From an uncultured bacterium (GTDB lineage: Bacteria > Auribacterota > Erginobacteria > Erginobacterales > Erginobacteraceae): a stretch of 64,000 nucleotides of DNA. Of the stretch, positions 4,895 to 63,901 are shown in pieces. Numbering within the stretch: the stretch's first letter is position 1; every line of letters starts with the position of its first letter. The stretch is from assembly GCA_964465735.1 (NCBI GenBank), contig CAYXKT010000002.1:472-64471 (forward strand). Reading direction: 5' to 3'. The notes below the pieces were generated by a model. It was not told the DNA's origin. It was given only the letters and a program-made list of their open reading frames with translations, and did no database searches. Both the position numbers and the translations under genes were made by a program.

Positions 4895-5004
4895 TCTGTC
4901 ATTGCGAGGGACAAAGTGACGAAGCAGTCTCATCACCAGATAAACAGATTGCTTCGTCGTCCCTCCTCGCAATAACCTGGTTTTCGGGGTTTTCGTTCCG
5001 GCAC
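4895..5004 (+). repeat. Intergenic nested-hairpin repeat element, copy C (full length, best-conserved stems)
   Basis: TCTGTCATTGCGAGGGACaaagtGACGAAGCAgTCTCATCACcagATAAACAGATTGCTTCGTCGTCCCTCCTCGCAATAACCTGGTTTTCGGGGTTTTCGTTCCGGCAC. Stems CATTGCGAGGGAC/GTCCCTCCTCGCAAT and GACGAAGCA/TGCTTCGTC. Confidence 0.65.
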
Positions 5005-5165
5005 TACTATAGGTTCTACTCCAGCGGCTGTCTATCCTAACCCGCCGGATTTGAATAATATTTCATTGGTTCGGGAAAATACAGGTTGTGGTTTGTGGTG
5101 TAATCGATTAGAGATAAAACGGTTTTAAGAAGAACAAGTCGGCCAAGGGAGCACGCGAATTTAAT

Positions 5166-18647: not shown

Positions 18648-18810
18648 ACCTAAGTTGAGCGATTATTGCGGATGAAATGTGCTAAGATTTTGCTGGCCGA
18701 CGGGTTGCGAAAACCGCAGCCATATCCAGGAGATATGGCGAGGATTTTCAATATCCGTTCGGACGCAAAAGATTGGTGCAGTTCGCCGCATAGAATCGCT
18801 CAATTTAGGT
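18648..18810. mobile_element. MITE-like element of about 163 bp with 15-17 bp terminal inverted repeats (copy 1 of 2)
   Basis: acCTAAGTTGAGCGATT...AATCGCTCAATTTAGGt. AT-rich relative to its flanks. Near-identical copy at 52258-52420 (2 mismatches). Intergenic. Confidence 0.6.
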
Positions 18811-47715: not shown

Positions 47716-49194
47716 TCACCGCCCGGGGAAAATCCGGCCCGCCGCCAGGGACAGCAGGACCGTCAAAAGAAGGGCATTGGCGGGGATGGCGAAGTTGAAG
47801 TTAAGCGCACTCTGGAGAAGCAGACCCAGAACCCCGGCGGAACAGCCGGCGACCAGCCCTCGTCCAGCTATCGGCCATCCCCCCGGACGTTTCCGCGGGT
47901 GCCCCGGGTAAGTACTGTCCGGTTTCCAGAACAAAACCGAACCAAAGAATACCAGGAAGAACCCGGTCAGGCCCACCAATCCCCAGGTCCCCATCTCCGC
48001 CGCAACCTGGAGGTAATCGTTCTCGGCGTGGGTAAACGGTTTGCGGCGATCAAAGGACTTGTAATAGGGATATAACTTCTCGAATCCCCCCAGACCGATC
48101 CCCAGGAGCGGGAAATCCCCGTAGATCCGGATGGTATCCCGCCAGATGTCCCGCCGGTACTCCACCTCCTTCCCCTTTCCTCCGATCGTCTCAAAACGAT
48201 GGACCAGGTCGGCGGTCCCGAAGTAGGCCAAGCCCAGGGCGATCAGGACCAGAGAGACAACGAAGATCATCAGGGACTGCTTCCGGTCGATCAGCCGGAA
48301 GCGGCGGGAGATCAAGATCAAATATACAAAGGCGAGAAGACCGGCCAGTATCCCGCTCCGGGAATAGGAGAGAAAGAGGGAAACCGCCATCACCAGGGCC
48401 ATAAAGCCGAGCAGGAGACGCCGGGGTTCGGACCGGACCATCCGGTCCCGAAAAAGCTCCCCGGCCGGCCGGGGCCGACGGCTCAGGAGCAGGCCCAGGG
48501 CGAGGGGGATGACCATTATGATATAGCCGGCAAAATGGTTGCGGTTGACGAAGGGACCGAAGGGATTCCCGAAGCGGATCGGGCGGAGCCAGTAAATCAT
48601 ACCCTGCCAGGAGTACTTCTGGAGAATCCCGATCACCGAGACGGCAAAACCGGTAGCGACAACCGCGGTCAGCAGCCGGGCGGTGAATCCCATCCAGTTC
48701 CCCTCCGCCGGCCGGTAGCCTTTCAGGGTGTAAAAGATCGCTCCGTAGGCCGCCAGCCTGACCAGCTCCCCGGCGGTCCGGGAAGGGTAAAGGGAGAATA
48801 CCGTCCAGGAACCGGAGGTGACCCGCCCGGTCAAAAGCCAGAACCGGGCGGTCCGGGGACTGATCGCGGAGACCAGGGTGACCGGAAGCGGGATCAGCTG
48901 GACCAGCGGGCCGAGGAGAAACAGAATTCCGAACCCGCAGAGCAGATAATCGGCGACCGGGCGGCACGCCGTTGGCGAAAGAGCCCCCGAAAGAGAAGGA
49001 ATTCGGACGAGCAGATGCCGGCGGTAACGTTCGGTCGCGGCAATCAGGAAGCAGCCCGCGGACAGGATAATCCAGGCCCAGGTCTCGACCGCCCCGAAGG
49101 CCAGGGGGGAGAAGACCACCAGGAAGACGGCTCCCCACTCGACAATCCGCTCGCACCGGCGGATCTCCTTCGGAATTGTTAAACGCTCATCCAT
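47716..49194 (-). CDS. O-antigen ligase family (Wzy_C domain) membrane protein
   Basis: Polytopic membrane protein. Large periplasmic loop carrying FLSYSRSGILAGLLAF (the SRSG motif typical of the WaaL/O-antigen-ligase family). I chose the start at the ATG of about 49194 (MDERLT...) to avoid overlap with the upstream GT4. The ORF-track start is 49305. Confidence 0.55.
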   Translation of the reverse strand: MDERLTIPKEIRRCERIVEWGAVFLVVFSPLAFGAVETWAWIILSAGCFLIAATERYRRHLLVRIPSLSGALSPTACRPVADYLLCGFGILFLLGPLVQLIPLPVTLVSAISPRTARFWLLTGRVTSGSWTVFSLYPSRTAGELVRLAAYGAIFYTLKGYRPAEGNWMGFTARLLTAVVATGFAVSVIGILQKYSWQGMIYWLRPIRFGNPFGPFVNRNHFAGYIIMVIPLALGLLLSRRPRPAGELFRDRMVRSEPRRLLLGFMALVMAVSLFLSYSRSGILAGLLAFVYLILISRRFRLIDRKQSLMIFVVSLVLIALGLAYFGTADLVHRFETIGGKGKEVEYRRDIWRDTIRIYGDFPLLGIGLGGFEKLYPYYKSFDRRKPFTHAENDYLQVAAEMGTWGLVGLTGFFLVFFGSVLFWKPDSTYPGHPRKRPGGWPIAGRGLVAGCSAGVLGLLLQSALNFNFAIPANALLLTVLLSLAAGRIFPGR

Positions 49195-49231
49195 ATTCTC
49201 GGGTTTTCGCGCCGCGGAAGGGGGATCGACC

Positions 49232-50359
49232 TCAGGGGAGCCCGAACTCCGCCAGGAGCCCGGCGACTTTTTCCCGGAAGGCTTTTCTCCCGAAGTACCG
49301 GTCAACCCGATCGTGGAGCTCGGCCGGGTCCGGAGCGGTCTCGGTCAATAACCGCCGCAACCCCACCTCGAGTTCTTTCGGACTCTCCGGATCGACCAGG
49401 ATGCCCAGTTCCCCTCCCCGCAGGGCGTCCGCTGCCGCGTCCCGGTTCCCGCCCAGGCACCGCTTTCCGCATCCCATCGCCTCCAGGAAAACAATCCCGA
49501 ACCCTTCCCGGAGACTGGGCATCGCGAAACCGTCGGCCATCCGGTAATGATCGGGCAGTTCTTCGTCGGAAATATACCCGGTTAGGATCACCCTCCCCTC
49601 CAGCCCCAGCTCACGGACTCTCCGTTCGACGTTGGGGCGATCGTCTCCCTCCCCTACGATTAAAAAGCGCAGTCCCGGAAAATCCGGAAGCAGACGGGGC
49701 AGGATCTCAATGACTCGGGAGTATCCCTTGTCCAGCCGGGAGACCACCAGGCGACAGACGCTGATCAACACCCTGTCTTTAGGATCAATCCCATAGCGCT
49801 GCCGCAGCCCGGCCGGGGCCGGTCCGGGCGAGAACCGTTCCCCGTCAAATGTGACCGGGATCACCCGGAACCTTTCTTCCGGGATACCGATCCCGGCCTC
49901 CATCTTTCCCCGGGTAAAATTGCTGATCGGCAGAATCATATCCACCCGGCCCAGCGCCCGGCGGACCCGGCCCCGGGGCAGGTCCCAGACCTCAACCCCG
50001 TAGGCGCTGACCGCCGCCGGGATCGAGAGAGTTCTCTTCAGCCAGGCTGCCGCCGGAGCAAAGTGGGGATGGGCGGAGATGACCAGCGCCGGTCTTTCCC
50101 GCCGGGCGGCCCGCAGCAGCCGGGCCGCGAAGATCGGGGTCCGGACTCGCTCGGGCATATCCCCCGAGGCGGAGATCCCGACGCTCTCCCCGTAGCGCTC
50201 CTCCAGCTCTCCCGGCCGGTCGGACTTGCTCAACAGGCGGATCCGGCCGGGCCCGAGAACGGCCAGGGCCGCCTCCGTCAGCTCCGCCGAGTAATTCTGG
50301 ATACCCCCCACCCGGGACAACAGTTCCGGCACCCAGATATGGAGTACCCCGCTGTTCAT
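49232..50359 (-). CDS. GT4 glycosyltransferase (first gene of the long minus-strand operon)
   Basis: 375 aa. ...MPSLREGFGIVFLEAMGCGKRCL (EX7E). Confidence 0.8.
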   Translation of the reverse strand: MNSGVLHIWVPELLSRVGGIQNYSAELTEAALAVLGPGRIRLLSKSDRPGELEERYGESVGISASGDMPERVRTPIFAARLLRAARRERPALVISAHPHFAPAAAWLKRTLSIPAAVSAYGVEVWDLPRGRVRRALGRVDMILPISNFTRGKMEAGIGIPEERFRVIPVTFDGERFSPGPAPAGLRQRYGIDPKDRVLISVCRLVVSRLDKGYSRVIEILPRLLPDFPGLRFLIVGEGDDRPNVERRVRELGLEGRVILTGYISDEELPDHYRMADGFAMPSLREGFGIVFLEAMGCGKRCLGGNRDAAADALRGGELGILVDPESPKELEVGLRRLLTETAPDPAELHDRVDRYFGRKAFREKVAGLLAEFGLP

Positions 50360-50551
50360 AACTTCAATCCATTACCTCTCTCTTCCATCATCCCCGATTT
50401 CCGGTTAATCAGGAGAAACTCTGGTCATCGGGAAATTTGAGTCTAACGCCCCTCTGACCGACCATCAGCGGATAATGCCGACGGCCTTCACTGATATCAG
50501 GATACCGGGACAACGGTGGGAATTGTATCTATTCTCTCCCGAACCGGAAAG

Positions 50552-50586
50552 AAAAAAACCGGGCCCGCCTCTTGGCGGGCCCGGTT
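50552..50586 (-). terminator. Rho-independent terminator downstream of 50616..52037
   Basis: On the minus strand: perfect 11-bp GC-rich stem CCGGGCCCGCC / GGCGGGCCCGG with a 5-nt loop, followed by TTTTTTT. Confidence 0.8.
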
Positions 50587-50615
50587 CTTCCTGACTTGCT
50601 GTTATGTTGCGGTTA

Positions 50616-52037
50616 TTAGTAGCCCGTGGCTCCGGTGACGATCACCGCGGCCGACTCATTGGGCGCGAGGGTATCGGTACCGACATTCCGGATAATCCAC
50701 TGGTCGGGCGAACGGAAGACCGTCAGGTCGACAACTCCGTCCCCGTCAAAATCTCCCACCACCGGGACGTCGCCGCTATTGCCCCAGACTGCGGTATCAT
50801 AGCCGCCGACCCCGTCGCGCCGGATCCACCAGAACCTGTTGTCGGCCGGCCGGTAGGCGCCAAGGCAAGAATACCCCGAGACATAGGCGCCCGGGACCGG
50901 GATATCGCCGCTCAGACCCCAGGCCCGGCTGCCGGGCACGCCGTTGACGAACCAGCGCCAGGTGCCGTAATCATCCGTGTTGATGACGGCGATGTCGGTC
51001 GTCCCGTCGCCGGTGTAGTCGCCCGGAACCGGGATCACACCGTCATAACCGTAGAGGATTGAGGTAATGTTCTTGACGTACCAGTAACCGTTGGAGGGCC
51101 GCCAGACAGCCAGGTCGGTCGTTCCGTCGCCGTCGTAATCGCCCGGCACCGGAACGTCGCCGGCAATACCCCAGACTTCGCCATCGATGATGGCTCCGCC
51201 GCCCACGCTCTGGGCAAACCATTCTCCGGTACCCCGGTCGAAGTAACCCAGGTCGGCTCTGCCGTCACCGTCATAGTCGCCGGGGGCCGGGACATCGTAC
51301 TCACCACCGCCGAAGGTCTCGGTGCCGATCCCTTCCAGCTGCCAATCGCCGCTGGATTGGTTGTAAAAGGCGGCATCGGTCATCCCGTCTCCACTGTAGT
51401 CGTCACTGGCTTTGACCAGATAAATCGGGGAAGGCGCGGGCGCCGGGGGTGCCGGCGGGGCCACGGTGGTAACATTGGTGATCGCCACATCGTCGATCAC
51501 GACATTGTCGGCATCGACCTTCAAGTACTCGATCTCCACCTGCTGGGAGGAACTGGCGTTGAGGGCCATAGTAATGATTCCGCCGCCGAGGCTGTGAGGC
51601 CCGGGCAGCCAGGAAAGAACGGACCAGTCGGCGCCGTTATATTCCCGGACCTGGATCGCGCTGCTCGGGTTGGCGCCAATGGCCTGGAGGTAGAAGCTCA
51701 GGTCGCTGTCGCCCGGGACGCCGTCCAGAGTGTACTCCTCGGTAATGATCCGGGAGCGGGCGGTCCGGCCCAGCTGGATACTCGGTACACCAGACAACGG
51801 ACCACCATATAACATATCAGCGTCCGAGTTCCGGTTGCAATTGATGAATTCCCAGCCGTCGGGGCGGACCCCGATCTGGAAGTTGTCGAAGCCCTCATTG
51901 ATCTGGGCCGTGGCCGACAGGCTGAGACAGACTGACACCACAATCATTACCGCCAATACCATTATTCCACGCTTCATACTAACCCCCTTCAGGTAGGGTT
52001 GTGTCCCGTTGCGGGGACTTGGTAATATGAAATACAC
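50616..52037 (-). CDS. Secreted protein: N-terminal unassigned domain of about 135 aa plus FG-GAP/VCBS-like repeats, C-terminal ...VTGATGY
   Basis: 473 aa with a signal peptide. N-domain INEGFDNFQIGVRPDGWEFINCNRNSD..., homologous to four copies in the giant protein. Repeats [60 protein letters not shown]. Confidence 0.7.
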   Translation of the reverse strand: MYFILPSPRNGTQPYLKGVSMKRGIMVLAVMIVVSVCLSLSATAQINEGFDNFQIGVRPDGWEFINCNRNSDADMLYGGPLSGVPSIQLGRTARSRIITEEYTLDGVPGDSDLSFYLQAIGANPSSAIQVREYNGADWSVLSWLPGPHSLGGGIITMALNASSSQQVEIEYLKVDADNVVIDDVAITNVTTVAPPAPPAPAPSPIYLVKASDDYSGDGMTDAAFYNQSSGDWQLEGIGTETFGGGEYDVPAPGDYDGDGRADLGYFDRGTGEWFAQSVGGGAIIDGEVWGIAGDVPVPGDYDGDGTTDLAVWRPSNGYWYVKNITSILYGYDGVIPVPGDYTGDGTTDIAVINTDDYGTWRWFVNGVPGSRAWGLSGDIPVPGAYVSGYSCLGAYRPADNRFWWIRRDGVGGYDTAVWGNSGDVPVVGDFDGDGVVDLTVFRSPDQWIIRNVGTDTLAPNESAAVIVTGATGY

Positions 52038-52163
52038 CTAATTCCCGATTATTTACCATTTTCCTCCTGATCGTCCCAGAGGTCAAGAGAAAAATTGATT
52101 TTTTTGAAAATATTTGAACATTTGTAAAACTTTAGCCTTTGTTGCTATCTGCAGCACTTCTGA

Positions 52164-52225
52164 TTGTCATTGCGAAAAATCTCAACCTGAAGATTGCTTC
52201 GTCGCCTTCGGCTCCTCGCAGTGAC
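52164..52225 (+). repeat. Repeat element copy E (diverged)
   Basis: TGTCATTGCGAAAAATCTCAACCTGAAGATTGCTTCGTCGCCTTCGGCTCCTCGCAGTGAC. Same architecture: GTCATTGCGA ... GATTGCTTCGTCG ... CCTCGCAGTGAC. Confidence 0.5.
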
Positions 52226-52257
52226 AATTGCAGACTTATAAAACTGTAGAGACTTTT

Positions 52258-52420
52258 ACCTAAGTTGAGCGATTATTGCGGATGAAATGTGCTAAGATTT
52301 TGCTGGCCGACGGGTTGCGGAAACCGCAGCCATATCCAGGAGATATGGCGAGGATTTTCAATATCCGTTCGGAGGCAAAAGATTGGTGCAGTTCGCCGCA
52401 TAGAATCGCTCAATTTAGGT
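52258..52420. mobile_element. MITE-like 163-bp element with terminal inverted repeats (copy 2 of 2)
   Basis: Same sequence as 18648-18810, differing at 2 positions. Lies between the two tandem paralogous genes. Confidence 0.6.
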
Positions 52421-52526
52421 TTTATAGAGTTGAAGTGTTACTGACATTTTAACCATCGCACATAAAATCCAGCGATGTCGAGAGTCAAACCTGATTTATT
52501 TCCTGGCTTCGGTTTGCGGCTCCGTT

Positions 52527-53900
52527 TTAGTATCCCGGAGCCCCGGTGACGATCACGTCATTGAAGAGATCGGCGGATAAAGTAACTTCGAAGCCGGAGG
52601 TCGGGCCATCCGGTCCGGTCCGCCCCAGCCACCGGTCCGGCGACCGGAATACGGCCGGGTAAACCACCCCGTCCCCGTTAAAGTCGCCCACCACCGGGAC
52701 GTCACCGGTCAGACCCCACAGTGCGGTACCATAGCCGCCGACGCCGTCGCGCCGGATCCACCAAAACCTGTTGTCGGCGGGCCGGTAGGCGCCCAAGTAG
52801 GTATGCCCGTCAGCAAAGTAAACACCCGGGACCGGGATATCGCCGCTCAGACCCCAGGCCCGGCTGCCGGGCACGCCGTTGACGAACCAGCGCCAGGTGC
52901 CGTAATCATCCGTGTTGATGACGGCGATGTCGGTCGTCCCGTCGCCGGTGTAGTCGCCCGGAACCGGGATCACACCGTCATAACCGTAGAGGATTGAGGT
53001 AATGTTCTTGACGTACCAGTAACCGTTGGAGGGCCGCCAGACAGCCAGGTCGGTCGTTCCGTCGCCGTCGTAATCGCCCGGCACCGGAACGTCGCCGGCA
53101 ATACCCCAGACTTCGCCATCGATGATGGAGTGGCTGCCCGGTTTCTGGGCGAACCACTGCCCGGTACCCCGGTCGAAGTAACCCAGGTCGGTCCAGCCGT
53201 TGCCGTTATAGTCGCCGGGCGCCGGGACGTCGTAGTCGCCGCCGCCAAAGGTTATTTTGCCGAACCCGTCAATCCGCCAGTCTCCTTTGGCGGTGTTGTA
53301 AACCGCGATATCGGAAGTCCCGTCTCCAGTGTAGTCGTCACTGGCTTTTACAAGATAAAACGGAGAAGGGGCCGGCGCCGGGGGCGCCGGCGGGGGCGCG
53401 GTGTCCACATTGGTGATCACCACATCGTCGATCACAACGTGACCGTCTCCACCAGCCTTCAAATATTCAATCTCCACCTGCTGGGAGGAGCTGGCGTTGA
53501 GGACCATAGTAATGGTTTCGCCGCTGTTGTTGTGAGGACCTGGCAGCCAGGTCAGCACAGACCAGGCACCACCGACAAACTCGCGGACCTGGATGGCGCT
53601 GATCGGGTTGGGGGTGATCGCCTGGAGCCAAAAACTCAACTGACTGGCACCGGTCAGGGTGAACTTCTCGGTCAAGATCCGGGAGCGAGTGGTCCGGCCC
53701 AGCTGGATACTCGGTACACCAGACAACGGACCACCATATAACATATCAGCGTCCGAGTTCCGGTTACAGTTGAAAAAACACCAGCGCGCCGGCCTGACCC
53801 CGATCTGGAAAGAATCGAATCCTTCATCGATCTGGGCCAGGGCCGGCAACCCCGCACAGAAAACAAGCGCCAGGGCCAATACCAATAAATCACACTTCAT
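52527..53900 (-). CDS. Secreted paralog of 50616..52037 (N-domain plus FG-GAP-like repeats, C-terminal ...VTGAPGY)
   Basis: 457 aa with a signal peptide. Same architecture as the neighbour. Contains a 304-bp block that is 100% identical at the DNA level to the neighbouring paralog. Confidence 0.7.
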   Translation of the reverse strand: MKCDLLVLALALVFCAGLPALAQIDEGFDSFQIGVRPARWCFFNCNRNSDADMLYGGPLSGVPSIQLGRTTRSRILTEKFTLTGASQLSFWLQAITPNPISAIQVREFVGGAWSVLTWLPGPHNNSGETITMVLNASSSQQVEIEYLKAGGDGHVVIDDVVITNVDTAPPPAPPAPAPSPFYLVKASDDYTGDGTSDIAVYNTAKGDWRIDGFGKITFGGGDYDVPAPGDYNGNGWTDLGYFDRGTGQWFAQKPGSHSIIDGEVWGIAGDVPVPGDYDGDGTTDLAVWRPSNGYWYVKNITSILYGYDGVIPVPGDYTGDGTTDIAVINTDDYGTWRWFVNGVPGSRAWGLSGDIPVPGVYFADGHTYLGAYRPADNRFWWIRRDGVGGYGTALWGLTGDVPVVGDFNGDGVVYPAVFRSPDRWLGRTGPDGPTSGFEVTLSADLFNDVIVTGAPGY

Positions 53901-54063
53901 CCTTACCCCCTTGGTGGATGCGACCCGTTGCGAGGACCTGTTAAAAACAACATTAACTCTGTGAAATCCAAATATTCCTGATGATAATCCATTTTCCCCC
54001 TTATCATCCCGACGGTCAAGAGAAAGATTGTTTTTGTTATTTAGTGTCTGAACGAAAACCCCT

Positions 54064-54154
54064 GAAACCAGATCATTACGAGGAGGGACGACGAAGCAAC
54101 CTGTTTACCCTGTGATGAGATGGCTTCTTCGCTCCGTTTTTCGCAATGACAGAC
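54064..54154 (-). repeat. Repeat element copy F (minus orientation)
   Basis: The reverse complement reads TCTGTCATTGCGAAAAACGGAGCGAAGAAGCCATCTCATCACAGGGTAAACAGGTTGCTTCGTCGTCCCTCCTCGTAATGATCTGGTTT. About 160 nt upstream of the 52527..53900 gene start. Confidence 0.6.
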
Positions 54155-54435
54155 GCGATATAATTGGAGGTTTTTTTCAGACACCATTTACTATTTCGAC
54201 CGACCTTCCGTTTCGGATTCAATGTTGACCGGATACCCTTAGGTGTTCCGCGGACCACTCGCCGGCGGCGCCGCTTTTGCTATCTTTGCCGGAATATTTC
54301 TGCTACTTTCTCCCCGGGTGGACAAATTTTGGCCGGGAATTGCTGCTGGACCAGACCCCATCTCGGGGGCAGACAGGAATACCTGGCCCGCCATAAGTTC
54401 CTCAAATAATCCCAAATCAATAATTTTAACGCCGA

Positions 54436-55341
54436 ATGAAAACCACGAGAGAGAAAATTCTTCTTCCCCTGATCGACCTCGTCCCCTGGTCGGTCCGGAA
54501 CCTCTTCTACCGCCTCCCCGGCGTCGCTCCGATCCTCCGGGGTTTACTCAATCGGGCCCTCCCGGCCGAGGGCCGGCTGACCCCGGTCCGGATCTCGGCC
54601 GGCCCCCTGAAAGGATTTCAGCTGGAAATCGATTGCCGGAAGGAAAAATTCTTCTGGCTGGGCACCCACGAACCATCAGTCCAGAAAGCGCTGTGTCGAC
54701 TGGCCCAACCCGGGATGACCGCCTATGACGTCGGAACCTATATCGGTTTCTTTACCCTCCTGCTCTCGCGGGCAGTTGGGGATACGGGCCGAGTTATTGC
54801 CCTGGAACCCAATCCGGATACTTATCGACGTCTGCTTAGCAATCTCCGCCTCAACCACCGGGAGAATGTCCAGGCCCTGCTCCTGGCGGCCGCCGATAAG
54901 TCCGGGCGGGAACTCTTCCAGACGGCGAAACACGACCTGGCCCCGGAGGCCCACCTGGTCGCCTCGGCCACCGTCCCCGAGCCCGACCCGGCCCCGAAAG
55001 TCGAGGTGGAGACCGTCTCCCTCGACGACCTGGTCTTCGACCGGGGTTTCCCCCGACCGGACCTGTTGAAGATCGACGTCGAGGAGAGCGAGGTTCGGGT
55101 GCTGGCCGGGATGGACCGGATACTGAAGGAGTGCCGCCCGGTCATCATCTGCGAGACCCACAGCGAAGAGGCCTCCCGCGAGGGGGCGCGGGCGCTGTGC
55201 GGTCACCACTATTCGTTGCGCGATTTGGAGCGCGATGTACCGATACCGGACGGGATCGACCCGCGGCCGGGAAGACTTTATCTTTTGGCGACGCCCGAAA
55301 ACCCGATGGTAGGTCAGGCATTCCTGCCTGACCTACGATAA
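54436..55341 (+). CDS. FkbM-family methyltransferase
   Basis: 301 aa. AYDVGTYIGFFTLLLS, VIALEPNPDTY, LLKIDVEESEVRVLAGM. Confidence 0.7.
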   Translation: MKTTREKILLPLIDLVPWSVRNLFYRLPGVAPILRGLLNRALPAEGRLTPVRISAGPLKGFQLEIDCRKEKFFWLGTHEPSVQKALCRLAQPGMTAYDVGTYIGFFTLLLSRAVGDTGRVIALEPNPDTYRRLLSNLRLNHRENVQALLLAAADKSGRELFQTAKHDLAPEAHLVASATVPEPDPAPKVEVETVSLDDLVFDRGFPRPDLLKIDVEESEVRVLAGMDRILKECRPVIICETHSEEASREGARALCGHHYSLRDLERDVPIPDGIDPRPGRLYLLATPENPMVGQAFLPDLR

Positions 55342-55352
55342 ACGAGAGGCTT

Positions 55353-56057
55353 ATGAAGATCCACGTCGGCTGCGGAGATTCCCCGATTTCGGGGTGGCGG
55401 AATTTCGACAACTCGATCAGCCTCCGGCTGGCCGGGATCCCTCTCCTGCCCCGGCTCCTCCGCCGGTGCGGAATCCTCAACCCCCGCCAGTACGCCTTTA
55501 TCGAGTTTGCCCGGTTACACCGGATCGAGTACGGCGACGGGGTCAAGGGGCTCCCGGTCCCCGACTGCTCCGCCGAGGCTCTCTACAGCTGCCATATGAT
55601 CGAGCACCTCAGCCGGGCCGACGCCGGACGTTTCCTGGAGGAAGCGAAGAGGGTCTTAATCCCCGGGGGAGTCATCCGGCTGGCGGTCCCCGATCTCCGG
55701 AGACTGGCCGGCCGCTACCTGGAGACCGGCGATGCCGACGGTTTTATCGCCGCCACCTACCTGGGCCGAGAGAACGACGGATCCGTGGCCGGGAGGATGG
55801 CAACGCTGATCGCCGGGCCGCGGCTCCACGGGTGGATGTACGATGAAAGATCGTTGGGCCGACTTTTGCGGGACCACGGATTTTCCGAGGTCGTCGCGGT
55901 CCCGCCGGGCGAGACGGGGATCCGGGAACCAGGAGAGTTGGACCTGAGAGAGAAAGAAGATGAGAGCGTCTATGTTGAGGCGGTAAAACCGGCCGGGGAA
56001 TCGGAAGCCCAAATCGCCTCCAACCGCCCGGTCGGGCCGGTAGAACCGGCTCAATAA
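55353..56057 (+). CDS. SAM-dependent methyltransferase (Methyltransf_11/23-like)
   Basis: 234 aa. [42 protein letters not shown]. Its 3' end overlaps the giant gene convergently by 7 nt. Confidence 0.65.
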
Positions 56058-59000
56058 GCAGTCGCCCCGGTGACGAAGGAGTCGGTGGACTGGGCGGTGA
56101 AATCAACGTAGTAGTACGGCCCGAAGGAAGACAGGATATACCAGCGATTCTCGCCCGGCCGGAAGACGGTCGGATCAGCCAGACCGTCCCCGTCGAAGTC
56201 TCCCACTACCGGGATATCTCCCCGCCCGGGAAGTCCCCAGCGGAACGACTCGGTATAGCTCCCGTCCAGTTTCCGGATAAACCAGTGTCCGGAGGTCGGG
56301 CGATATACCGCCAGCTCGGTGGCCCCGTCACCGGTATAGTCCATCGGCATTGCCAGGTCACCCTCCAGGTACCACCTCCGGGAACCGACCCCCCGGACGA
56401 ACCAATCTCCGGTCGACGGGCGGAGCATCGTGATGTCGGTCGTCCCATCCCCATTGTAATCTCCCGGTACCGGAATATCGCCCTCCCATCCCCAGTGAGC
56501 CACGGTCAGGTTCCGGATCCACCAGCGGTTGGTCGAGGACCTAAAGACGGCCAGTTCGGCGGTCCCATCCCCGGTATAATCCCCTGGGACCGGCAGATCC
56601 CCCCATTCCCCCCACTGCTCTTCGTCCAGTAAAACTCCCCCGGTCAGGCTCAGGACATACCACTTCCCGGAGAAACGGTCGAAGTAGCCGACGTCGGCCG
56701 TCCCGTCCCCGTCGTAGTCGCCGGGCACCGGAATATCACCCTCTCCCCCGCCCCAGACCAGTCCTGAAGTCACCCCCCGGATATCCCATTCCCCGCTGGC
56801 TGGGTCGTAGACCGCGGTATCGCTCGCCCCGTCCCCGTTATAATCGTCCCAATCCACCACCAGGTGGGCCGGGGTCAACCGGACCTCCGGGGTTGGGCTC
56901 GGGGTAGGCGTCGGCGTCGGGGTCCGGTAACCTTCGGGGGTCTGGCTTGGAGCGACGGTCGGTGTCGGACTCAAATACCCGGCCGGAGTCGGGCTTGGCG
57001 AAGCGGTCGGGGAAGGAGTCGCGCTGGGCGCCGGCGTCGGGGTGGTCAGGTATCCGACCTTCTCCAGCCGGGAGATGAAGATATCCTCCGCGCCCCCACC
57101 GAAGACGGACTGGAAAGCGTTCTCGACCGGGAAGTCAGTCGAAACAGTATCCCCGACCAGGTAGAACCTCCGCGAGCCGTCGAGGGCCGCGCCCAAGCTG
57201 GATTCCGTTCCGCTCCCTCCCAGGTAGGTGGAATAAGCCAGCGCATCCCCGACGGGATAGAGACTGGCCGCGAAGGCGTCCCGGTTGCCCCCCCCGTAAA
57301 CGGACTGGTAAGGGCGATAGAGCGGGAAATCGGTCGAGGTGGTCCAGCCGGCCAGGTAAACGTATCCGGAGCCATCGACCGCGATCCCTCGTCCGCGCTC
57401 CTCTCCGCTCCCTCCCAGATAGGTCGAATAGACCAGGGCATCCCCGGCGGCGGCGAGCCGGGCAACGAATACGTCCCCATAACTTGTCCCGCCACTCAAG
57501 ACCGACTGCAGGGCGTCCCGGGTGGGGAAGTCGGCGGAGAGGGTGTTACCGACTATCAGCGCCTCCCCGGTGGCGAGCAGCGCGATATCCTCCGCTCCAT
57601 CCTTACCGGCGCCACCGAGATATGTCGCATAGAGCGGTTCCGAACCGTCGGCAGCGAACCGAACCACGAACGCGTCGGCCTGCCCACCGCCAAAAGCGGC
57701 CTGGAAGGAGGACGCGGTGGGAAAGTCCTCGGACTCGGTCCGCCCGGTCAGGTAAGCCGAACCGGACCCGTCGACCGCGATCGCTTCCGCGTAATCGGCG
57801 GCGGCGCCGCCGAGGAAAGTCGAATAGACCAGGCCGGAGCCGTCACCGGACATCTTGCTGACGAAAATATCCCAGAACGAAGTCCCGGCGTGGGCCGGCT
57901 GCCAGGAATTCAGGGTCGGGAAATCCGCCGACCCGGTGCAGCCGGCCAGGTAGATGTCCCCTTCCCCGTCGACCGCGATACCCCGGACGGAGTCAGTTCC
58001 GGAACCGCCCAGATAGGTGGAGAAGACAAGGGTATCCCCGGAGGAAGATAGCTTGCTGACAAAGGCGTCGTAATCCCCGCCTGCTCGCCCGGCCTGGTAG
58101 GCCGCCGCGGTCGGAAAGTCTTCCGAAGATGTGTAACCGGCCACCAGGGCGTTGCCGTCCCCGTCAAGAGCAATATCCCACCCGACGTCTTCCCCCGAAC
58201 CGCCCAGATAGGTGGAGTAGAGCAAATTCTGCCCGTTTGAGGAGAACCTGGTAACCACTGTATCCCAGGAGCTGGAATAGGCGGGCTGGAGAGCGGAGGC
58301 GGTGGGGAAATCGGCCGAGGTGGTCACCCCGGCCAGGTAAGCCTCTCCCCCGGAGTTAACCGCGATGGCGAAACCCCGATCCCTCCCCTCCTCCCCCAGG
58401 TAGGTCGAGTAGTCGAGGACCAGACGATACATATAGTTATCCGGGGTCGGGGTCGGCGAGGGAGCCGGGGTCGGGGTGTCCGTCGGCGGAGGCGAGACCG
58501 TCGGGGTTGCCGACGGCGTTGGGGTTGCCGACGGCGTCGGGGTAATTGAAGGGGTCGGGGTCATCGAGGCGGTCGGGATTGCCGAAGGCGTCGGGGTCAC
58601 CGTCGAGGTCGGCGTGGCGGATGGCGTCGGCGTTACCGAGGGTGTCGGCACCAGGGAAGGCGTTGGCGTAATGGACGATGTCGGCGCCGGTGACGGTGTC
58701 GGCGTCACCGTGAGCGTCGGGGTTGCCGACGGTGTCGGGGTAATCGAGGGCGTCGGGGTGATCGACGGCGTTGGGGAAATTGATGGCGTCGGTGTAATTG
58801 ACGGTGTCGGTGTCACGCTCGGGGTCGGAGTTGGCGTGACCGAGGGCGACGGCGTCACCGTCGCCGTCGGCGTCACACTCGGGGTCGGCGTTACTGAAGG
58901 CGTCGGAGTAACCGACGGTGTCGGCACCACGGAAGGCGTCGGCGTAATGGATGATGTCGGCGCCGGTGACGGTGTCGGCGTCACCGAAGGAGTCGGGGTC

Positions 59001-62000
59001 ACCGTCGGCGTCACCGTGAGGGTCGGGGTCACCGTCGCCGTCGGGGTAATCGAGGGCGTCGGGGTGATCGACGGCGTCGGGGAAATTGATGGCGTCGGTG
59101 TAATTGACGGTGTCGGCGTGATTGATGGCGTCGGTGAGGGCGTCGGAGTTATCGACGGCGTGGGCGTAATTGAGGGTGTCGGCGGCGCGGTGGGCGTCGG
59201 AGTCACCGAAGGCGTCGGCGTCACCGTCGCCGTCGGCGTCACGCTCGGGGTCGGCGTCAGTGTCGGCGTCGGACTCGGCGTCGGCGTCGGCGTGATCAGG
59301 CACTTGACCAGGACATCGTCCAGGGCCAGGTCGCCGAGGCTCTTCTGATAGGTGAACTGGACCTGGCTGCTCGAGGGGTTGAGAACCAGGCCAGTGAAGA
59401 CCGTCCCGGTCGCGGGGATGGGGAGAAGATCGGTCACGGCGGCCCAGCCGACGGTGGCGGCGTACTCCTCGACCAGGAGACTGCTCAAGGAGTCGGTCCC
59501 CTGCCCCTTGACCCAGAACTGGAGCCACTCCCCGGGCAGGAACTCCGCCGTCCGGATGTAGTAACCGTCGGTGTCGAGCTTGAGCGAGGGCGAGAGATGG
59601 CCGTAGTCCCCGGAGGTGGTATAGACGTCCCCGGCCGCCACCCCGGAGAAGTTCCAGCCCGCCGGGATATCCCAGAGCGGGGCGGTGAACCCGTCAAACC
59701 CCTCGTCCAGCCGGGTGCAGATCGCCGGTGTCGGCGTAGCCGTCGGCTCTGCCGTAGGAGTCGGGGTCGCAGTGGCACTGGGCGCAATCGAGGGAGTCGA
59801 GGTCGCAGTCGGGGCTACGGTCGGTGTCGGAGTTCGCGTCGGGGCCACCGTCGGGGTCGCTGTCGGCGGAACGGTCGGCGGTGGAGTCTTGACCGGGGTA
59901 AGAGTCGGGGCCGGAGATGGCGTGGTCAGGCAGCTGACTAAAACATCATCAAAAGCAAGATCTCCCGCGGACTTATTATAAGTAAAGCGCAATCGTGTAG
60001 TGGAAGTGAGCAGATTAAAAGCTCCCAGGGTAGTCCCGGTTGTCGGGAGCGAACTGATATCGGTAACCGTACTCCAGCTGTCAATCGAGTAGTACTCTTC
60101 TACCAAAAGATGACTGGATGAGTCGGTACCCTGGCCTTTAACCCAGAACTGGAGCCAGTTTCCTTCGGCCAAAGCTGCCGTCTCGATAATATCCCCGGTA
60201 TTGTCCAGTTTGATCGACGGGGAAAGATGTCCAAAACTCCCCACCGCGGTATAGGTATCGGAGTTCAGGTTACAGCCGGTAAAGGTCCAGCCGGACGGCC
60301 GGGTCCCGGTATTAAAACCGTCAAACCCTTCGTCCAGCCGGGTACAGATCTCCGGGGTCGGGGTCGGGGTGACCACCCGGGGAGTGGGCGTAACCGTCGG
60401 GGTCGGGGTCGGGGTGATCACCCGGGGAGTGGGCGTAACCGTCGGGGTCGGAGATGGGAAGTCGGCCGGGAAGTTGAAGCGGGCGGCAAAGGCGTCGTAA
60501 TCTCCGGACCGGGAGGACTGGTAGGCGTTGAGGACCGGGAAGTTGGAGGATTTGGTATAACCGCCGATCGCGATATCGGGGGAATCGTCCGCCAGCGCCC
60601 GGCCCCGGTCGACTCCCGAACCGCCCAGGTAGCTGGAATACTCCAGGGCCGAACCGGCGGGGTTGAACCGGGCCAGATAAGCGTCCCAGTCACCCCCGGA
60701 AGTGGACTGGTAGGCGTTGACCACCGGGAAGTCGGTAGACTTCGTGGCCCCGACCACGGAAACCCGGCCGTCGGTCACTCGCAGGGCGTGGCATTCCTCC
60801 AGGCCGCTCCCCCCGAGATAGGTGGAGTAACCAAGAGTGGAACCGTCGGGGGCCAACCGGGCAACAAAGGTGTCACTGGTGCCGGAGAGGCTCCCCTGAT
60901 AAGCAGCGGAGGTGGGGAAGTTAGCCGAGAAGGTATCTCCCGCCAGGTAAACATTCCCCCCGGAATCAAGGCCGACCCCGCTGGCGGAATCGGCGTCGTT
61001 GCCGCCGAGATAGGTGGAGAAGACCAGGGAAGTCCCCCCGGAGGAAAACCGGGCAACAAAGGCGTCATAGCCACCGGCCATCGCCGGCTGGTAGGCAGAC
61101 ACAGTGGGAAAATCTCCAGAGTAAGTCAGACCGGCCAGATAGATTTCACCGCTGGAAACCGTGACCGCCAACCCCTGGTCTTCATCCGACCCCCCAAAAT
61201 AGGTGGAATAAAGCAGGGATTGTCCGTCCGCGGCAAAACGGGCAACAAAAGCGTCGTAATCGCCCCCGGGCGTCCCTCCGTGCGCGGACTGATAGGCACC
61301 GACGACCGGGAAATCGCCGGAATTGGTGTACCCGGCCAGATAGGGGGTGTCGTTTTCGACGAAGATGCCGTAGCCACGGTCATTCTCATTCCCCCCCAGA
61401 TAGGTGGAGTAGAGAAGATCGGTGCCCCCGGAAGAGAACTTGGCGAGAAAGGCATCGCTGGAACCGGACCGAGACGACTGGTAGGCGTTGACAGCAGGGA
61501 AATTATAGGAAAATGTGGTCCCGATTATGTAGGCCTGGCCGGAGGAGTCGACCGCCAGAGCATTGACATAATCGGATGAAGATCCTCCCAGGTAGGTGGA
61601 GTAACTCAGGCTCTGCCCATCGGAGGAGAACTTGGCCAGGAAAACATCGTAATTACCGGCGTTGCCGGATTGATAGGCGTTGGCGGACGGAAAATTGCTC
61701 GACCGGGTATAGCCGGTCAGGTAGATCGAACCATCAACGATCTCAATCCCCCGGGTATAGTCCTTCCCGGTTCCGCCGAGATAAGTGGAATACTCCAGGG
61801 CCAGGTTAACCGGGGTCGGGGTCGGTCCGGACGGGGTCAGGGTGGGGACCGGGGTCAAGGTAGCAGTCGGCGGCGGGGTCGGGGTGGCGGTCGGCGGCGG
61901 GGTCAGGGGGAGCGATGGAGTCGGGGTCGGGGTTTTGTAGTCCCCCGGGGTCACCGTCGCCGTCGGCGGCACGCTGGAGGACGGCGACGGTGTCGGAGAT

Positions 62001-63901
62001 TTGTAATCTACCGGGGTCGGCGTGGTCAGGGAAGGGTTGCCCCGGATGATGATGTCGTCGAGAGCGATGTTGCCCTTCTCTTTATTCAAAGTAAACCGGA
62101 TCCGGTCGGTGGGGTTGTAGAGATTGATCGGACCCACCGTAACCCCCTGCTTGGTATCGGGAAGATAGGTAAACTCGCCCAGCGGATACCACTGGTCGTT
62201 ATAGTGGTCCTCAACCAGCAGGGAAGTGGTGGTATCGGTGCCGGCCCCCCGCATCCAGAACTGGAGCGAGGTGGCGTCATAAAGGACCTCGGTGGTGATC
62301 TGGGCCCCGTTGGTATCGAGCTTGATCGAGGGAGGCGACTGACCGCAGTAATCGGGGTTGGAATAAGTATCGCTGTTAAGGTTGCAATAAAGGAATGTCC
62401 AGCCGGCTGGTCGGACGCCCGCGGCAAATCCGGTAAAATCTTCCTCGACCACAACCTCGTGCGCGGTGACGTGAAAGGTCTTGGTCACGGGTTTGTGAGT
62501 AATCCCAGGATAGTAGAGGTCGTCGTATTTGATCGGCGGGACCGCCGAGAGGGGGGCAAAGATATGGTCGTCGAAGACGTGGCCGGCGGTAAAGGTCTGG
62601 AACGAGGTATAAGTCTGGCCGACATTGGTGGTGATGGTCCGGTTATCGAGGAGAACGTTGGGCATTATCCAGTCGTAGGGGTAGCTGCGGGGGGTAGTCG
62701 AATTGGTGTTGTCGTTCCCCTCCCGGTCCATCGGGATGTAGTTATTGTAGTTGAGGAAGGTCGAGAAGACGGCCAGGCAGGGTTCACTGGCCGGGGAGCG
62801 GGAAAAGCAGTTCAAATCACCGGCCAGGACCGCGTAATGGTTCTGCAGATCAAACTCAGTCTGCATATAATCCTTGAGCTGGTAAGCCTGGTCCTCCCGG
62901 ATCAGCCGGTCCGAGGTGGTATTGCCGGCCTTGAGATGAACGGAGACGATCTGGAGGTCCCGGTCGCCGGGGATATCGACCACCGCCCAGGCAAAATTCC
63001 TCCCCAGCGTCTCGTGGCCGACATCCTCCCAGGTCCCGGCGGTCAGGATCGACCATCGGCTGATGATCCCGTTGGCGGCGCCGGCGGACTCGATATAGTA
63101 ATCGAAATCACTCCCGAAGGCGGTATCCACCCATTCCCGGACCCCGGAGTAGGTGGACTGGACGCTGAACTCCTGGACGCTGGTAATATCCGGTCCCAGG
63201 CCCTGGAAGATCCGGGCCGCCGGATCTCCGTAACGGTACTTGAAGGCCATAATGTTAGTGGTACAGACGGTCAGGGACTCATAGTGGGAGATCGGGGTCG
63301 GCGGGGGCGTCGGGGACTTGTAGCCAACCGGGGTCGGAGTGGTGACACCGGCGGTCGGGGTCGGAACCGGGGTTGAGGTCGGGATCGGGGTCGGGGTCTT
63401 GAAAAGGGAGGTAATCAGGACATCATCAATACCCAGATTGCCGCTCCGTTTGGCGTAAGTAAATTTCAGCTGGCTGGTCGAGGGATTGAGGGCGAGGTCG
63501 CCGATCGTCGTCCCGGAGGTGGGGAGATAACTGACCTGAGTCAGGGTGTGCCAGGTACTGAAATACTCTTCGACCAGGAGGCTGCTGGTGATGTCCGTCC
63601 CCTGGCCCTTGATCCAGAATCGGAGCCAGTCCGGGTCGGAGAAGCTGGAGGTGGTGACGGCGTCGCCGGTGGCGTCAAGCTTGATCGAGGGGGAGGCGGC
63701 GCCGTAATCTCCGGCCATAATATAGGTATCGGCATCCTGGTTGCAACCCGTGAACGTCCAGCCGGCCGGTCGGGTCCCGGTATCGAAACCGTCAAACCCC
63801 TCCTCAATCAGGGCACCCCGGGAAGAAGAGATAACCGCGAAAGAAGCCAACAAGGCAACGGAGGCAAGAAAGACTCGAAAAAGACGCTTGGAGATCTTCA
63901 T
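56051..63901 (-). CDS. Giant secreted multidomain surface protein (2616 aa): 4x unassigned N-domain, EEP-like domain, 2x SBBP-type propeller repeat blocks, Pro/Thr/Ser linkers, C-terminal FG-GAP-like repeats ending ...VTGATAY
   Basis: Signal peptide [29 protein letters not shown]-like region at about 62500-63290 ([13 protein letters not shown]...VSVHLKAG...GDLNCF...[10 protein letters not shown]). SBBP-like repeats ([24 protein letters not shown]) at about 60100-61800 and 56730-58410. PT linkers, the largest at 58437-59330. FG-GAP-like repeats at 56054-56620. Confidence 0.85.
58437..59330. repeat. Low-complexity tandem-repeat DNA encoding a (T/S)PTP(S/T)(V/I/A) linker of about 300 aa
   Basis: 6-, 9- and 15-bp periodic GTCGGGGT / GACGGCGTCGG repeats. 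On the minus strand they read [17 protein letters not shown].... On the plus strand they produce the spurious [13 protein letters not shown]. Confidence 0.8.
60364..60447. repeat. 42-bp perfect tandem duplication within a PT linker of the giant gene
   Basis: GGGGTGA(C/T)CACCCGGGGAGTGGGCGTAACCGTCGGGGTCGG x2. Encodes [11 protein letters not shown](I/V)T twice. Confidence 0.7.

Follow-up and report, generated by a model that had tools for sequence, protein, structure and literature searches.

Two tandem genes in the window (the whole 64,000-nucleotide stretch of DNA that was analysed) are diverged along most of their length but contain an internal block without a single nucleotide difference, which raises the question of how this block came to be identical. 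The genes lie on the minus strand, B upstream and A downstream, inside a polysaccharide-biosynthesis cluster of an Auribacterota-like genome (Ca. Auribacterota or a relative). The genes and their associated signals are as follows.

50616..51977, minus strand: gene A, 453 aa, an open reading frame identical to database protein P0002, with Pfam FG-GAP and FG-GAP_3 matches above cut-off.
52527..53900, minus strand: gene B, 457 aa, an open reading frame with Pfam matches and an AlphaFold2 model, of the same architecture as A.
52058..52086, minus strand: promoter-like site of gene A, TTGACC-17-GAAAAT with an A-rich tract before it, from a consensus scan.
53991..54019, minus strand: promoter-like site of gene B, TTGACC-17-GAAAAT, from a consensus scan.
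50552..50584, minus strand: intrinsic terminator of gene A, CCGGGCCCGCC-AAGA-GGCGGGCCCGG followed by T7, read from the sequence and the downstream alignment.

The length of 457 aa that a preliminary description of this DNA had given for B was correct, but its 473 aa for A is most likely 453 aa, with the start at the ATG at 51977, which has a conserved AAGGGGG ribosome-binding site and agrees with the orthologue starts and with P0002. Both genes matched PF01839 (38.7-39.8 bits; cut-off 22.1) and PF13517 (35.9-39.4 bits; cut-off 26.9), and the AlphaFold2 model of B (pLDDT 83) placed a propeller at residues 183-445 and matched UmbA4 (9oee) and the PVL lectin (4up4) in Foldseek. By Pfam profile and modelled fold, A and B are assigned as FG-GAP/VCBS beta-propeller proteins, and their products are predicted to be secreted and lectin-like, with a Sec-type signal peptide, a CBM/MAM-like beta-sandwich, a Pro-rich linker and the FG-GAP beta-propeller. 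Both genes are intact, each being full length with a conserved promoter-like site, ribosome-binding site, start codon and signal peptide. The promoter-like site of A recurs at the matching position, with conserved sequence, at B and in 5/5 orthologues; its presence at B indicates that the duplicated unit takes in the promoter and the 5' UTR. The terminator of A is kept in all orthologues, and none follows B. This terminator was missed by the terminator scan and was read directly from the sequence. The base composition of the two genes is similar (GC 0.61 in B and 0.62 in A), and no compositional sign of foreign origin was found for B (GC3 0.745 vs 0.773 in A).

Comparison of the two genes delimited the identical block, which occurs in two copies only within the window.

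50890..51193, minus strand: 304-nt block, gene A copy, codons 262-363, exact match, putative donor.
52825..53128, minus strand: 304-nt block, gene B copy, codons 258-359, exact match, putative recipient.

The two copies match exactly over 304 nt at an offset of 1935. The preliminary description had the identity and the A interval right and placed the B interval at 52826-53127, one base off at each end. The edges of the block are abrupt. Outside it the genes are 76.7% identical, and when the difference positions were shuffled 20,000 times the longest identical run was 71 nt. Third codon positions are 100% identical inside the block (n=101) and 66.9% identical outside (n=347), and among codons for the same amino acid synonymous differences number 0/100 in the block vs 72/244 outside. 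The dS between A and B is 0 within the block vs 0.63 in the flanks, and the true block identity could be ~99% if an assembler popped small bubbles. The remainder of the genes is thus clearly diverged, as had been described, and uniform identity across both genes, which had been named as the sign of a simple recent duplication, is absent, ruling such a duplication out.

We compared these differences with the variation in five orthologues, each present as a single copy in another genome. No other part of the family is as conserved as the block, which has 89-94% nucleotide identity to the closest orthologues vs 70-88% in the flanks; in B it covers blades 3 and 4 of the predicted propeller together with the beginning of blade 5, and contains the two canonical DxDGDGxxD loops. 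Between orthologues, however, block dS is still 0.20-0.34 (flank dS between genomes, 0.37-0.95), and about 13 or more silent differences between A and B would be expected in the block under the most conservative scaling. At sites variable among the five orthologues, A and B differ at 0/113 in the block vs 174/474 outside, and agreement at all 113 has P = 3.6e-23 (Fisher 3.6e-20), so purifying selection cannot explain the identity of the block. Paralogue identity is significantly above that of the flanks and homogenisation reaches silent and freely variable sites, as in an interlocus gene conversion tract. Because block dS is unusually low even between genomes, some constraint on the nucleotide sequence, or some exchange between genomes, may also have played a part.

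By position, gene A is orthologous to the gene that the relatives carry in single copy. It shares 84-89% nucleotide identity in the flanks, the same terminator and the GT4 neighbour with the orthologue of Ca. Erginobacter occultus (hereafter Erginobacter). Every relative found has a single copy at the syntenic site, and genome and metagenome contig scans turned up just relatives already known, and no second genome with a tandem pair. Outside the converted tracts dS is 0.63 between B and A and 0.72 between B and Erginobacter, and B branches outside the A-Erginobacter pair. Judged from these distances the copies are old or of different origin, since the dS of 0.63 exceeds that between A and the Erginobacter orthologue. 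Outside the tract the A-Erginobacter distance is 0.11-0.16 and the A-B distance 0.22-0.32, and inside it A equals B. The topologies therefore conflict, with A nearest to Erginobacter in most windows and identical to B in the block. Window distances also showed that the lectin-like family is mosaic between genomes: the signal-peptide region of B is nearest to orthologue P4 (0.18-0.22), the distance between P4 and P7 is 0.15 in the C-terminal part vs 0.31 elsewhere, and other orthologues are mosaic too.

The second-longest identical run between the genes lies in the N-terminal domain.

51762..51836, minus strand: 75-nt identical tract, gene A copy, putative recipient.
53691..53765, minus strand: 75-nt identical tract, gene B copy, putative donor.

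None of 50,000 permutations reached 75 nt (maximum 56). Within this tract A is 33% diverged from Erginobacter vs 14-16% in the flanks, and a 2-codon insertion (LYGGPLSGVPS) is common to A and B alone. A third identical run of 31 nt (51226-51256) was rejected as a tract, the permutation mean maximum of about 30 placing it in the range of chance.

The direction of transfer was examined with outgroup distances. The block lies at a distance of 0.05-0.07 from Erginobacter, and in neighbouring propeller windows the A-Erginobacter distance is 0.04-0.09 and the B-Erginobacter distance 0.14-0.25. Three-taxon branch lengths in the block are 9 for the block, 10 for Erginobacter and 22 for P4, and the block/P4 ratio of 0.41 fits the A-type value of 0.36 and not the B-type value of 0.86. 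These distances, of 19-32 differences, point with statistically modest strength to A as the donor and B as the recipient of the 304-nt block, and the 75-nt tract apparently went the opposite way, from B to A. Neither a native, unconverted B block nor an unconverted A tract was found in any sequence compared. The preliminary description had called the conversion ongoing; the 304-nt block does bespeak a recent event, and continued exchange is suggested by the 75-nt tract with its apparently opposite direction.

Two elements were found in the spacer between the genes.

52258..52420, no strand assigned: MITE-like element, 163 bp, with 17-nt terminal inverted repeats ACCTAAGTTGAGCGATT / AATCGCTCAATTTAGGT, flanked by TTT/TTT.
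52163..52233, no strand assigned: short palindromic repeat, GTCATTGCGA...TCGCAGTGAC, in the A-B spacer, from sequence and family alignment.

The MITE reported earlier between the genes is real: it is non-coding, its 17-nt inverted repeats have 1 mismatch, it carries 3-bp flanking duplications, and a second copy in the window at 18648-18810 has 3 mismatches and is flanked by ATA/ATA. The suggestion that it promotes conversion found no backing, as no link was found between the element, which lies 405 bp from the B block and 1,065 bp from the A block, and the tracts. The palindromic repeat was placed in the family of 54037-54154 by eye rather than with BLAST. No matches came from Rfam or tRNA scans of the whole window.

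We then considered whether other assemblies agree with the repeat. An ENA contig from another sample (L001), 99.6% identical to the window, carries B with the block and has zero differences in the block; it terminates within the MITE, and it and the window may come from related samples of one study, so that their biological independence is incomplete. Logan contigs are built at k=31 (PMC12424806), and one of them (L015, run SRR29792785) is 100% identical to 49047-50919; coming from the A side, it stops after exactly 30 nt (k-1) of the block. Since a k=31 graph breaks k-1 past a one-sided repeat boundary, this end is as expected for a real repeat. On the methyltransferase side, three contigs (L017-L019) stop at 54070, 54378 and 53850, short of the 75-nt tract, and provide no test of it; four others (L012, L013, L014 and L016) end at 50841, 50504, 50638 and 50492, off the block edge, and are uninformative. 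Two assemblies are thus consistent with the repeat, and the presence of both copies in one molecule is supported indirectly.

These data bear on the possibility that the identity is an assembly artefact, either because variants were collapsed or popped so that one consensus fills both genes, or because two strains were joined into a chimera at the repeated MITE. The window is evidently metagenome-assembled, with P0002 and P0121 sharing one NCBI contig of 67.9 kb; all relatives are single-copy, and the end of L001 inside the MITE shows that this element breaks assemblies. Against this, an assembler has no way of turning roughly 80% identical sequence into a 304-nt identical run and would hide a few SNPs at most, B with its block was assembled independently, and the k=31 contig of another run branches exactly at 50889|50890. 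Moreover, the region upstream of A (52106-52257) has no homology to that upstream of B, nor has the tail that follows B any to the region downstream of A, so the two genes cannot both fill one single-copy slot. Even the 75-nt tract, shorter than typical final k-mers, is identical. We therefore consider an artefact very unlikely. The chance that the block stayed identical without recombination, through selection on the nucleotide sequence itself (extreme codon bias, an embedded RNA or a DNA signal), is negligible: the conservation of the block in the family, its lowered dS between genomes and its slightly higher GC3 (0.81 vs 0.72-0.78) would fit such selection, but 113/300 block sites vary among the five orthologues, A differs from Erginobacter at 19 block sites and from B at none, and no Rfam family matched anywhere in the window.

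Recombination between genomes is a further alternative, in which B, or the unit containing it, arrived by lateral transfer from a related lineage and the identical patches derive from the incoming DNA or its integration, not from conversion between resident copies. The position of B outside the A-Erginobacter pair, the lack of any relative with two copies and the likeness of the B signal-peptide region to P4 are in keeping with it; this last likeness and the mosaic make-up of other orthologues indicate that lineages do exchange at this locus. It has only a slim probability, as the matching copy lies just 1.9 kb off in the genome itself and is the simplest donor of the patches, the opposite directions suggested for the two tracts require both copies to be resident, and the GC and GC3 of B resemble those of A; it also concerns how B arose more than how the block did, and conversion could still have followed.

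The identity of the block is very probably the result of ordinary, apparently non-reciprocal interlocus gene conversion between the members of a lineage-specific tandem pair, with a 304-nt patch probably passing from A to B and a 75-nt patch apparently from B to A. The earlier proposal of recent intergenic conversion between diverged tandem paralogues is thereby upheld by the dS of 0 vs 0.63, the phylogenetic conflict, the non-uniform identity and the two consistent assemblies. That bacterial paralogues undergo gene conversion is well established (PMC6053082; PMC12046097). Homologous recombination would recently have copied the A patch, encoding a little over two blades of the propeller, into B, and the N-terminal-domain patch apparently from B into A. 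We infer that the conversion was RecA-dependent and intragenomic, with RecA-type strand invasion joining misaligned copies, on sister chromosomes or on the same one. The conversion may have started in the most conserved segment of the family, where uninterrupted identity sufficed, and probably ended at the highly divergent sequence on either side of the block. The effect would be homogenisation of the conserved propeller core, and the by-product a perfect direct repeat of 304 bp, with its copies 1,935 bp apart, through which deletion to form a B/A hybrid, or amplification, could occur.

A broader reading, which we offer as speculative and rather unlikely, is that the conserved two-blade core acts as a recombination hinge in a cycle of duplication, conversion and deletion that reassorts the N-terminal carbohydrate-binding module and C-terminal blades of the secreted lectin-like protein, both inside Auribacterota lineages and from one to another. 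The A/B pair seen here would be an intermediate before a B/A hybrid, and mosaic single-copy orthologues such as P4, with its B-like signal peptide and P7-like C-terminus, would be past products. If true, the cycle would give an uncultured phylum a simple way, requiring just two genes, of diversifying a protein associated with the cell envelope or with polysaccharide. Under interlocus gene conversion, the pair is a clean, well-delimited example of patchy conversion from an uncultured phylum, with no new mechanism, in which the extra lectin-like copy B is kept partly in step with the resident copy A. There are also practical consequences: a 304-bp perfect repeat breaks short-k assemblies and could mislead strain-level variant calling, and unmasked A/B tracts will confound phylogenies of the lectin-like family.

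Reviewed cases of conversion between bacterial paralogues include duplicated tuf genes, rRNA operons and PE/PPE genes (PMC6053082; PMC12046097). As in interlocus conversion and concerted evolution, A and B are, as assembled, direct repeats close together on one replicon, contain a discrete tract of perfect identity with homogenised silent sites within otherwise diverged paralogues, and are closer to each other than to their orthologues in the tract only. Unlike concertedly evolving paralogues, they are converted in patches, 304 + 75 nt of about 1.36 kb, with an overall dS of 0.63. Unlike tuf- and rRNA-type cases, they encode not a housekeeping product but a predicted secreted lectin-like protein of an uncultured phylum, and the directions of their tracts appear to differ.

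In cassette-based antigenic variation by gene conversion, known from Neisseria pilE/pilS, Borrelia vlsE and Opa-type mosaics, neighbouring homologues of an exported protein also recombine, as A and B do for a predicted exported protein whose family is mosaic between genomes. In contrast to those systems, the locus has no silent, promoterless or truncated cassettes, just two copies, both complete, and the exchanged segment is the most conserved part, so that diversity is reduced and not created. The exchange between A and B is homogenisation and not a silent-cassette variation system. The preliminary likening of this mosaicism to that of variable surface proteins is accordingly apt for the predicted secreted, lectin-like nature of the products and the mosaic family, and fails for the conserved exchanged block and the two complete copies.

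At the protein level, A and B resemble the Psathyrella velutina lectin (4up4) and the Streptomyces umbrella toxin UmbA4 (9oee) in their predicted propeller and DxDGDG calcium-type loops, but the sequence identity of the family to solved structures is just 14-20%. The pairing of an N-terminal CBM/MAM-like domain with the conserved C-terminal ..V.GA.GY tail is specific to the small Auribacterota/PVC family to which A and B belong.

Genes A and B lie in tandem, with B upstream of A, and encode two-domain proteins predicted to be secreted and lectin-like, both of which exceeded the gathering scores of Pfam FG-GAP and FG-GAP_3. They share an identical stretch of 304 nt, the block.

50616-52037, minus strand: open reading frame of gene A as listed, with the block inside
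52527-53900, minus strand: open reading frame of gene B, with the block inside

Gene A almost certainly begins with the ATG at 51977, because a conserved AAGGGGG ribosome-binding site precedes it, all orthologue starts align, and the protein equals database protein P0002; this would make A 453 aa long, not 473 aa as in the preliminary description. An AlphaFold2 model of B was built from a 53-sequence alignment (mean pLDDT 83), which gave the following architecture.

B residues 4-14: N-terminal signal-like helix, then an ALA-Q / ATA-Q cleavage-type motif
B residues about 23-165: beta-sandwich
B residues 166-182: PAPPAPAP linker
B residues 183-445: beta-propeller

Foldseek searches against the PDB matched the propeller to UmbA4 (9oee) and a Psathyrella lectin (4up4), and the N-domain to MAM domains, CBM4/16/22 modules and gingipain adhesin domains. 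Within B, the block spans residues 258-359, comprising blades 3-4, which hold two canonical loops (DYDGDGTTD and DYTGDGTTD), and the start of blade 5; blades 2 and 6, outside the block, have lost the canonical Asp (DYNGNGWTD and DFNGDGVVY). At the C-terminus of full-length family members (P0001-P0010, P0023) lies a conserved tail, [IV]V.GA.[GS]Y (50616-50645 in A, 52527-52556 in B), perhaps a closing strand or a signal for sorting; in the model of B it was of low confidence (pLDDT <50, residues 446-457).

We found that 50890-51193 equals 52825-53128 exactly over 304 nt, at an offset of 1935; the first interval had been described correctly, and the second, given as 52826-53127, fell short by one base on both sides. 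Nucleotide identity between A and B was 100% inside the block and 76.7% outside, confirming that the rest of the two genes is diverged. Third-codon-position identity was 100% inside (n=101) versus 66.9% outside (n=347), silent differences at codons for the same amino acid numbered 0/100 versus 72/244, and dS (NG86) was 0 versus 0.63. When the A/B difference positions were permuted 20,000 times, identical runs reached 71 nt at most. Because conservation within the family is highest in the block, where dS is low between genomes too (0.20 to Erginobacter, the Ca. Erginobacter occultus orthologue on contig L005; 0.27-0.34 to P4, the orthologue on L002), we conditioned on site variability. A and B differed at 0 of 113 orthologue-variable sites inside the block versus 174 of 474 outside (P = 3.6e-23; Fisher 3.6e-20). 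Together with the dS values, these results support intergenic conversion, as originally proposed.

The variable-site test also excluded protein-level or other constraint as the sole cause of the A/B identity. Between genomes, dS in the block columns of the orthologue alignment (window 50890-51193; L005, L002, L009, L011, L007) was 2-3x below that of the flanks (Erginobacter-P4, 0.27 vs 0.92), and GC3 was slightly raised (0.81 vs 0.72-0.78); codon constraint or inter-genome exchange may be the cause of the low dS.

It is very improbable that the identity or the tandem pair is an assembly artefact. By popping bubbles an assembler could mask a few SNPs, but it has no way of turning sequences that are roughly 80% identical into 304 nt of perfect identity. 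Two contigs from independent data also lend support to the repeat. The ENA contig L001 (ERZ1761209, 2,456 bp), which stops inside the MITE between the genes, matches 52296-54752 at 99.6% identity and carries B with the block unchanged. The Logan contig L015, from run SRR29792785, matches 49047-50919 at 100% identity and, coming from the A side, stops exactly 30 nt into the block. In the de Bruijn graph behind Logan contigs (k=31), no 31-mer occurs twice (PMC12424806); a contig that stops k-1 nt past 50889/50890 therefore marks a one-sided branch precisely at the block boundary, indicating that the raw reads of SRR29792785 contain two different left flanks running into one shared sequence. The upstream spacer of A and the downstream tail of B are without homology to the matching regions of the other gene, which argues against A and B being mis-joined alleles of one slot.

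Exactly one copy of the gene, at the same syntenic position, was present in each of five genomes or contigs from relatives (L002/3/4/8, L005/6, L007, L009/10, L011). Among named organisms, Ca. Erginobacter occultus, of Ca. Auribacterota (PMC9324843), is the nearest relative. With the converted tracts set aside, A and the Erginobacter gene are sisters and B falls outside the pair (dS 0.37 for A-Erginobacter, 0.63 for A-B, 0.72 for B-Erginobacter), suggesting that B is either an old paralogue that the relatives have lost or a xenologue acquired by lateral transfer.

In propeller windows adjoining the block, the distance to Erginobacter was 0.04-0.09 for A and 0.14-0.25 for B; that of the block was 0.05-0.07. 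Three-taxon branch lengths in the block were 9 (block), 10 (Erginobacter) and 22 (P4), a block/P4 ratio of 0.41, with an A-type ratio of 0.36 and a B-type ratio of 0.86. The block thus appears A-type, pointing, on modest counts, to transfer from A to B. A second identical tract of 75 nt (51762-51836 = 53691-53765) was also found, a length reached by none of 50,000 permutations (maximum 56). It contains a 2-codon insertion common to A and B and present in no orthologue, and A-Erginobacter divergence there was 33% versus 14-16% in the flanks, which suggests, again from modest counts, transfer from B to A.

Zero differences over 304 sites set an upper 95% bound of ~1% A/B divergence in the block, against 6.3% for A-Erginobacter, indicating that the conversion is recent on the scale of the latter divergence. 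It predates the split of the window and L001 strains, since L001 has the same block despite 9 differing positions in 2.46 kb.

The duplicated unit extends from ~130 nt upstream of the start codon, where an A-rich tract, a TTGACC-17-GAAAAT promoter-like site and a conserved 5' UTR are found, to ~35 nt beyond the stop codon. A retains a terminator of orthologue type and the GT4 neighbour. At 52427-52526, B lacks a counterpart of the strong GC-rich terminator found after A and every orthologue, so that transcription from B may continue across the MITE towards A. The 5' UTR of every family member contains a conserved small hairpin, GYCCC-loop-GGGRC (window 51978-52057 and 53901-53990, minus strand; L005:5068-5160, L002:7908-8003, L009:5910-6003, L011:386-468, L007:2950-3032). 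The AACCCU that follows can pair with the GGGGGUU ribosome-binding site, possibly forming an SD-sequestering helix; RNAalifold predicted both helices, although conservation of the sequence leaves hardly any covariation. The units are separated by ~390 nt containing a short palindromic repeat and the MITE.

52258-52420: MITE, 163 bp, with 17-nt TIR and 3-bp flanking duplications
52163-52233: short palindromic repeat, reversed copy, in the A-B spacer
54037-54154: palindromic repeat copy, just upstream of the B promoter
4895-5006: palindromic repeat copy
2455-2572: palindromic repeat copy
3-67: palindromic repeat copy

These small intergenic repeats, with GTCATTGCGA...TCGCAATGAC-type ends, are 74-82% alike (BLAST) and occur in at least 5 copies in the window; the short copy at 52163-52233 was assigned to the family by eye. 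A second MITE copy (18648-18810, flanked by ATA/ATA) differs from the spacer copy by 3 mismatches, indicating recent mobility. The MITE lies 405 bp from the block in B and 1,065 bp from that in A; its presence between the genes was borne out, but nothing tied it to the conversion it had been suggested to promote.

The neighbours encode a GT4 glycosyltransferase, a Wzy_C protein, FkbM-type and other methyltransferases and a 2,616-aa SBBP/FG-GAP protein, making this a polysaccharide or cell-envelope cluster. The SBBP/FG-GAP gene (56051-63901, minus strand), kept beside the locus in relatives, contains many internal repeats (66-72% identical, 57092-59297), and its C-terminal FG-GAP part is 66% nt-identical to the A propeller (56432-56848 vs 50991-51404).

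From general knowledge of bacterial recombination, the conversion would have involved RecA-type homologous, non-reciprocal exchange between A and B as misaligned direct repeats. Exchange would most likely have started within the best-conserved family stretch, where identity runs long enough, and would have ended where divergence jumps (SVGGGA vs KPGSHS on one side, AYVSGYSC vs VYFADGHTY on the other). The propeller core is thereby homogenised, and the perfect direct repeat of 304 bp could in turn give rise to amplification or to a deletion that leaves a B/A hybrid.

The single-copy orthologues P4, P7 (on L009) and Erginobacter are themselves mosaic relative to A and B. B and P4 are nearest each other in the signal-peptide region, the C-terminal quarter of P4 (last ~90 codons) is nearest P7 (0.12-0.15 vs ~0.31 elsewhere), and at codons about 100-160 A is nearer B than Erginobacter. 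These patterns suggest recombination between lineages, extending beyond the A/B pair; on this basis a duplication-conversion-deletion shuffling cycle is conceivable, though improbable. The preliminary likening to variable surface proteins thus holds for mosaicism between genomes but not for cassette-type antigenic variation: the locus has two copies only, neither in a silent cassette, and the exchanged segment is conserved rather than variable. The A/B case fits ordinary interlocus gene conversion with partial concerted evolution of bacterial paralogues, a known phenomenon (PMC6053082; PMC12046097) of which it is a further instance, in an uncultured lineage.
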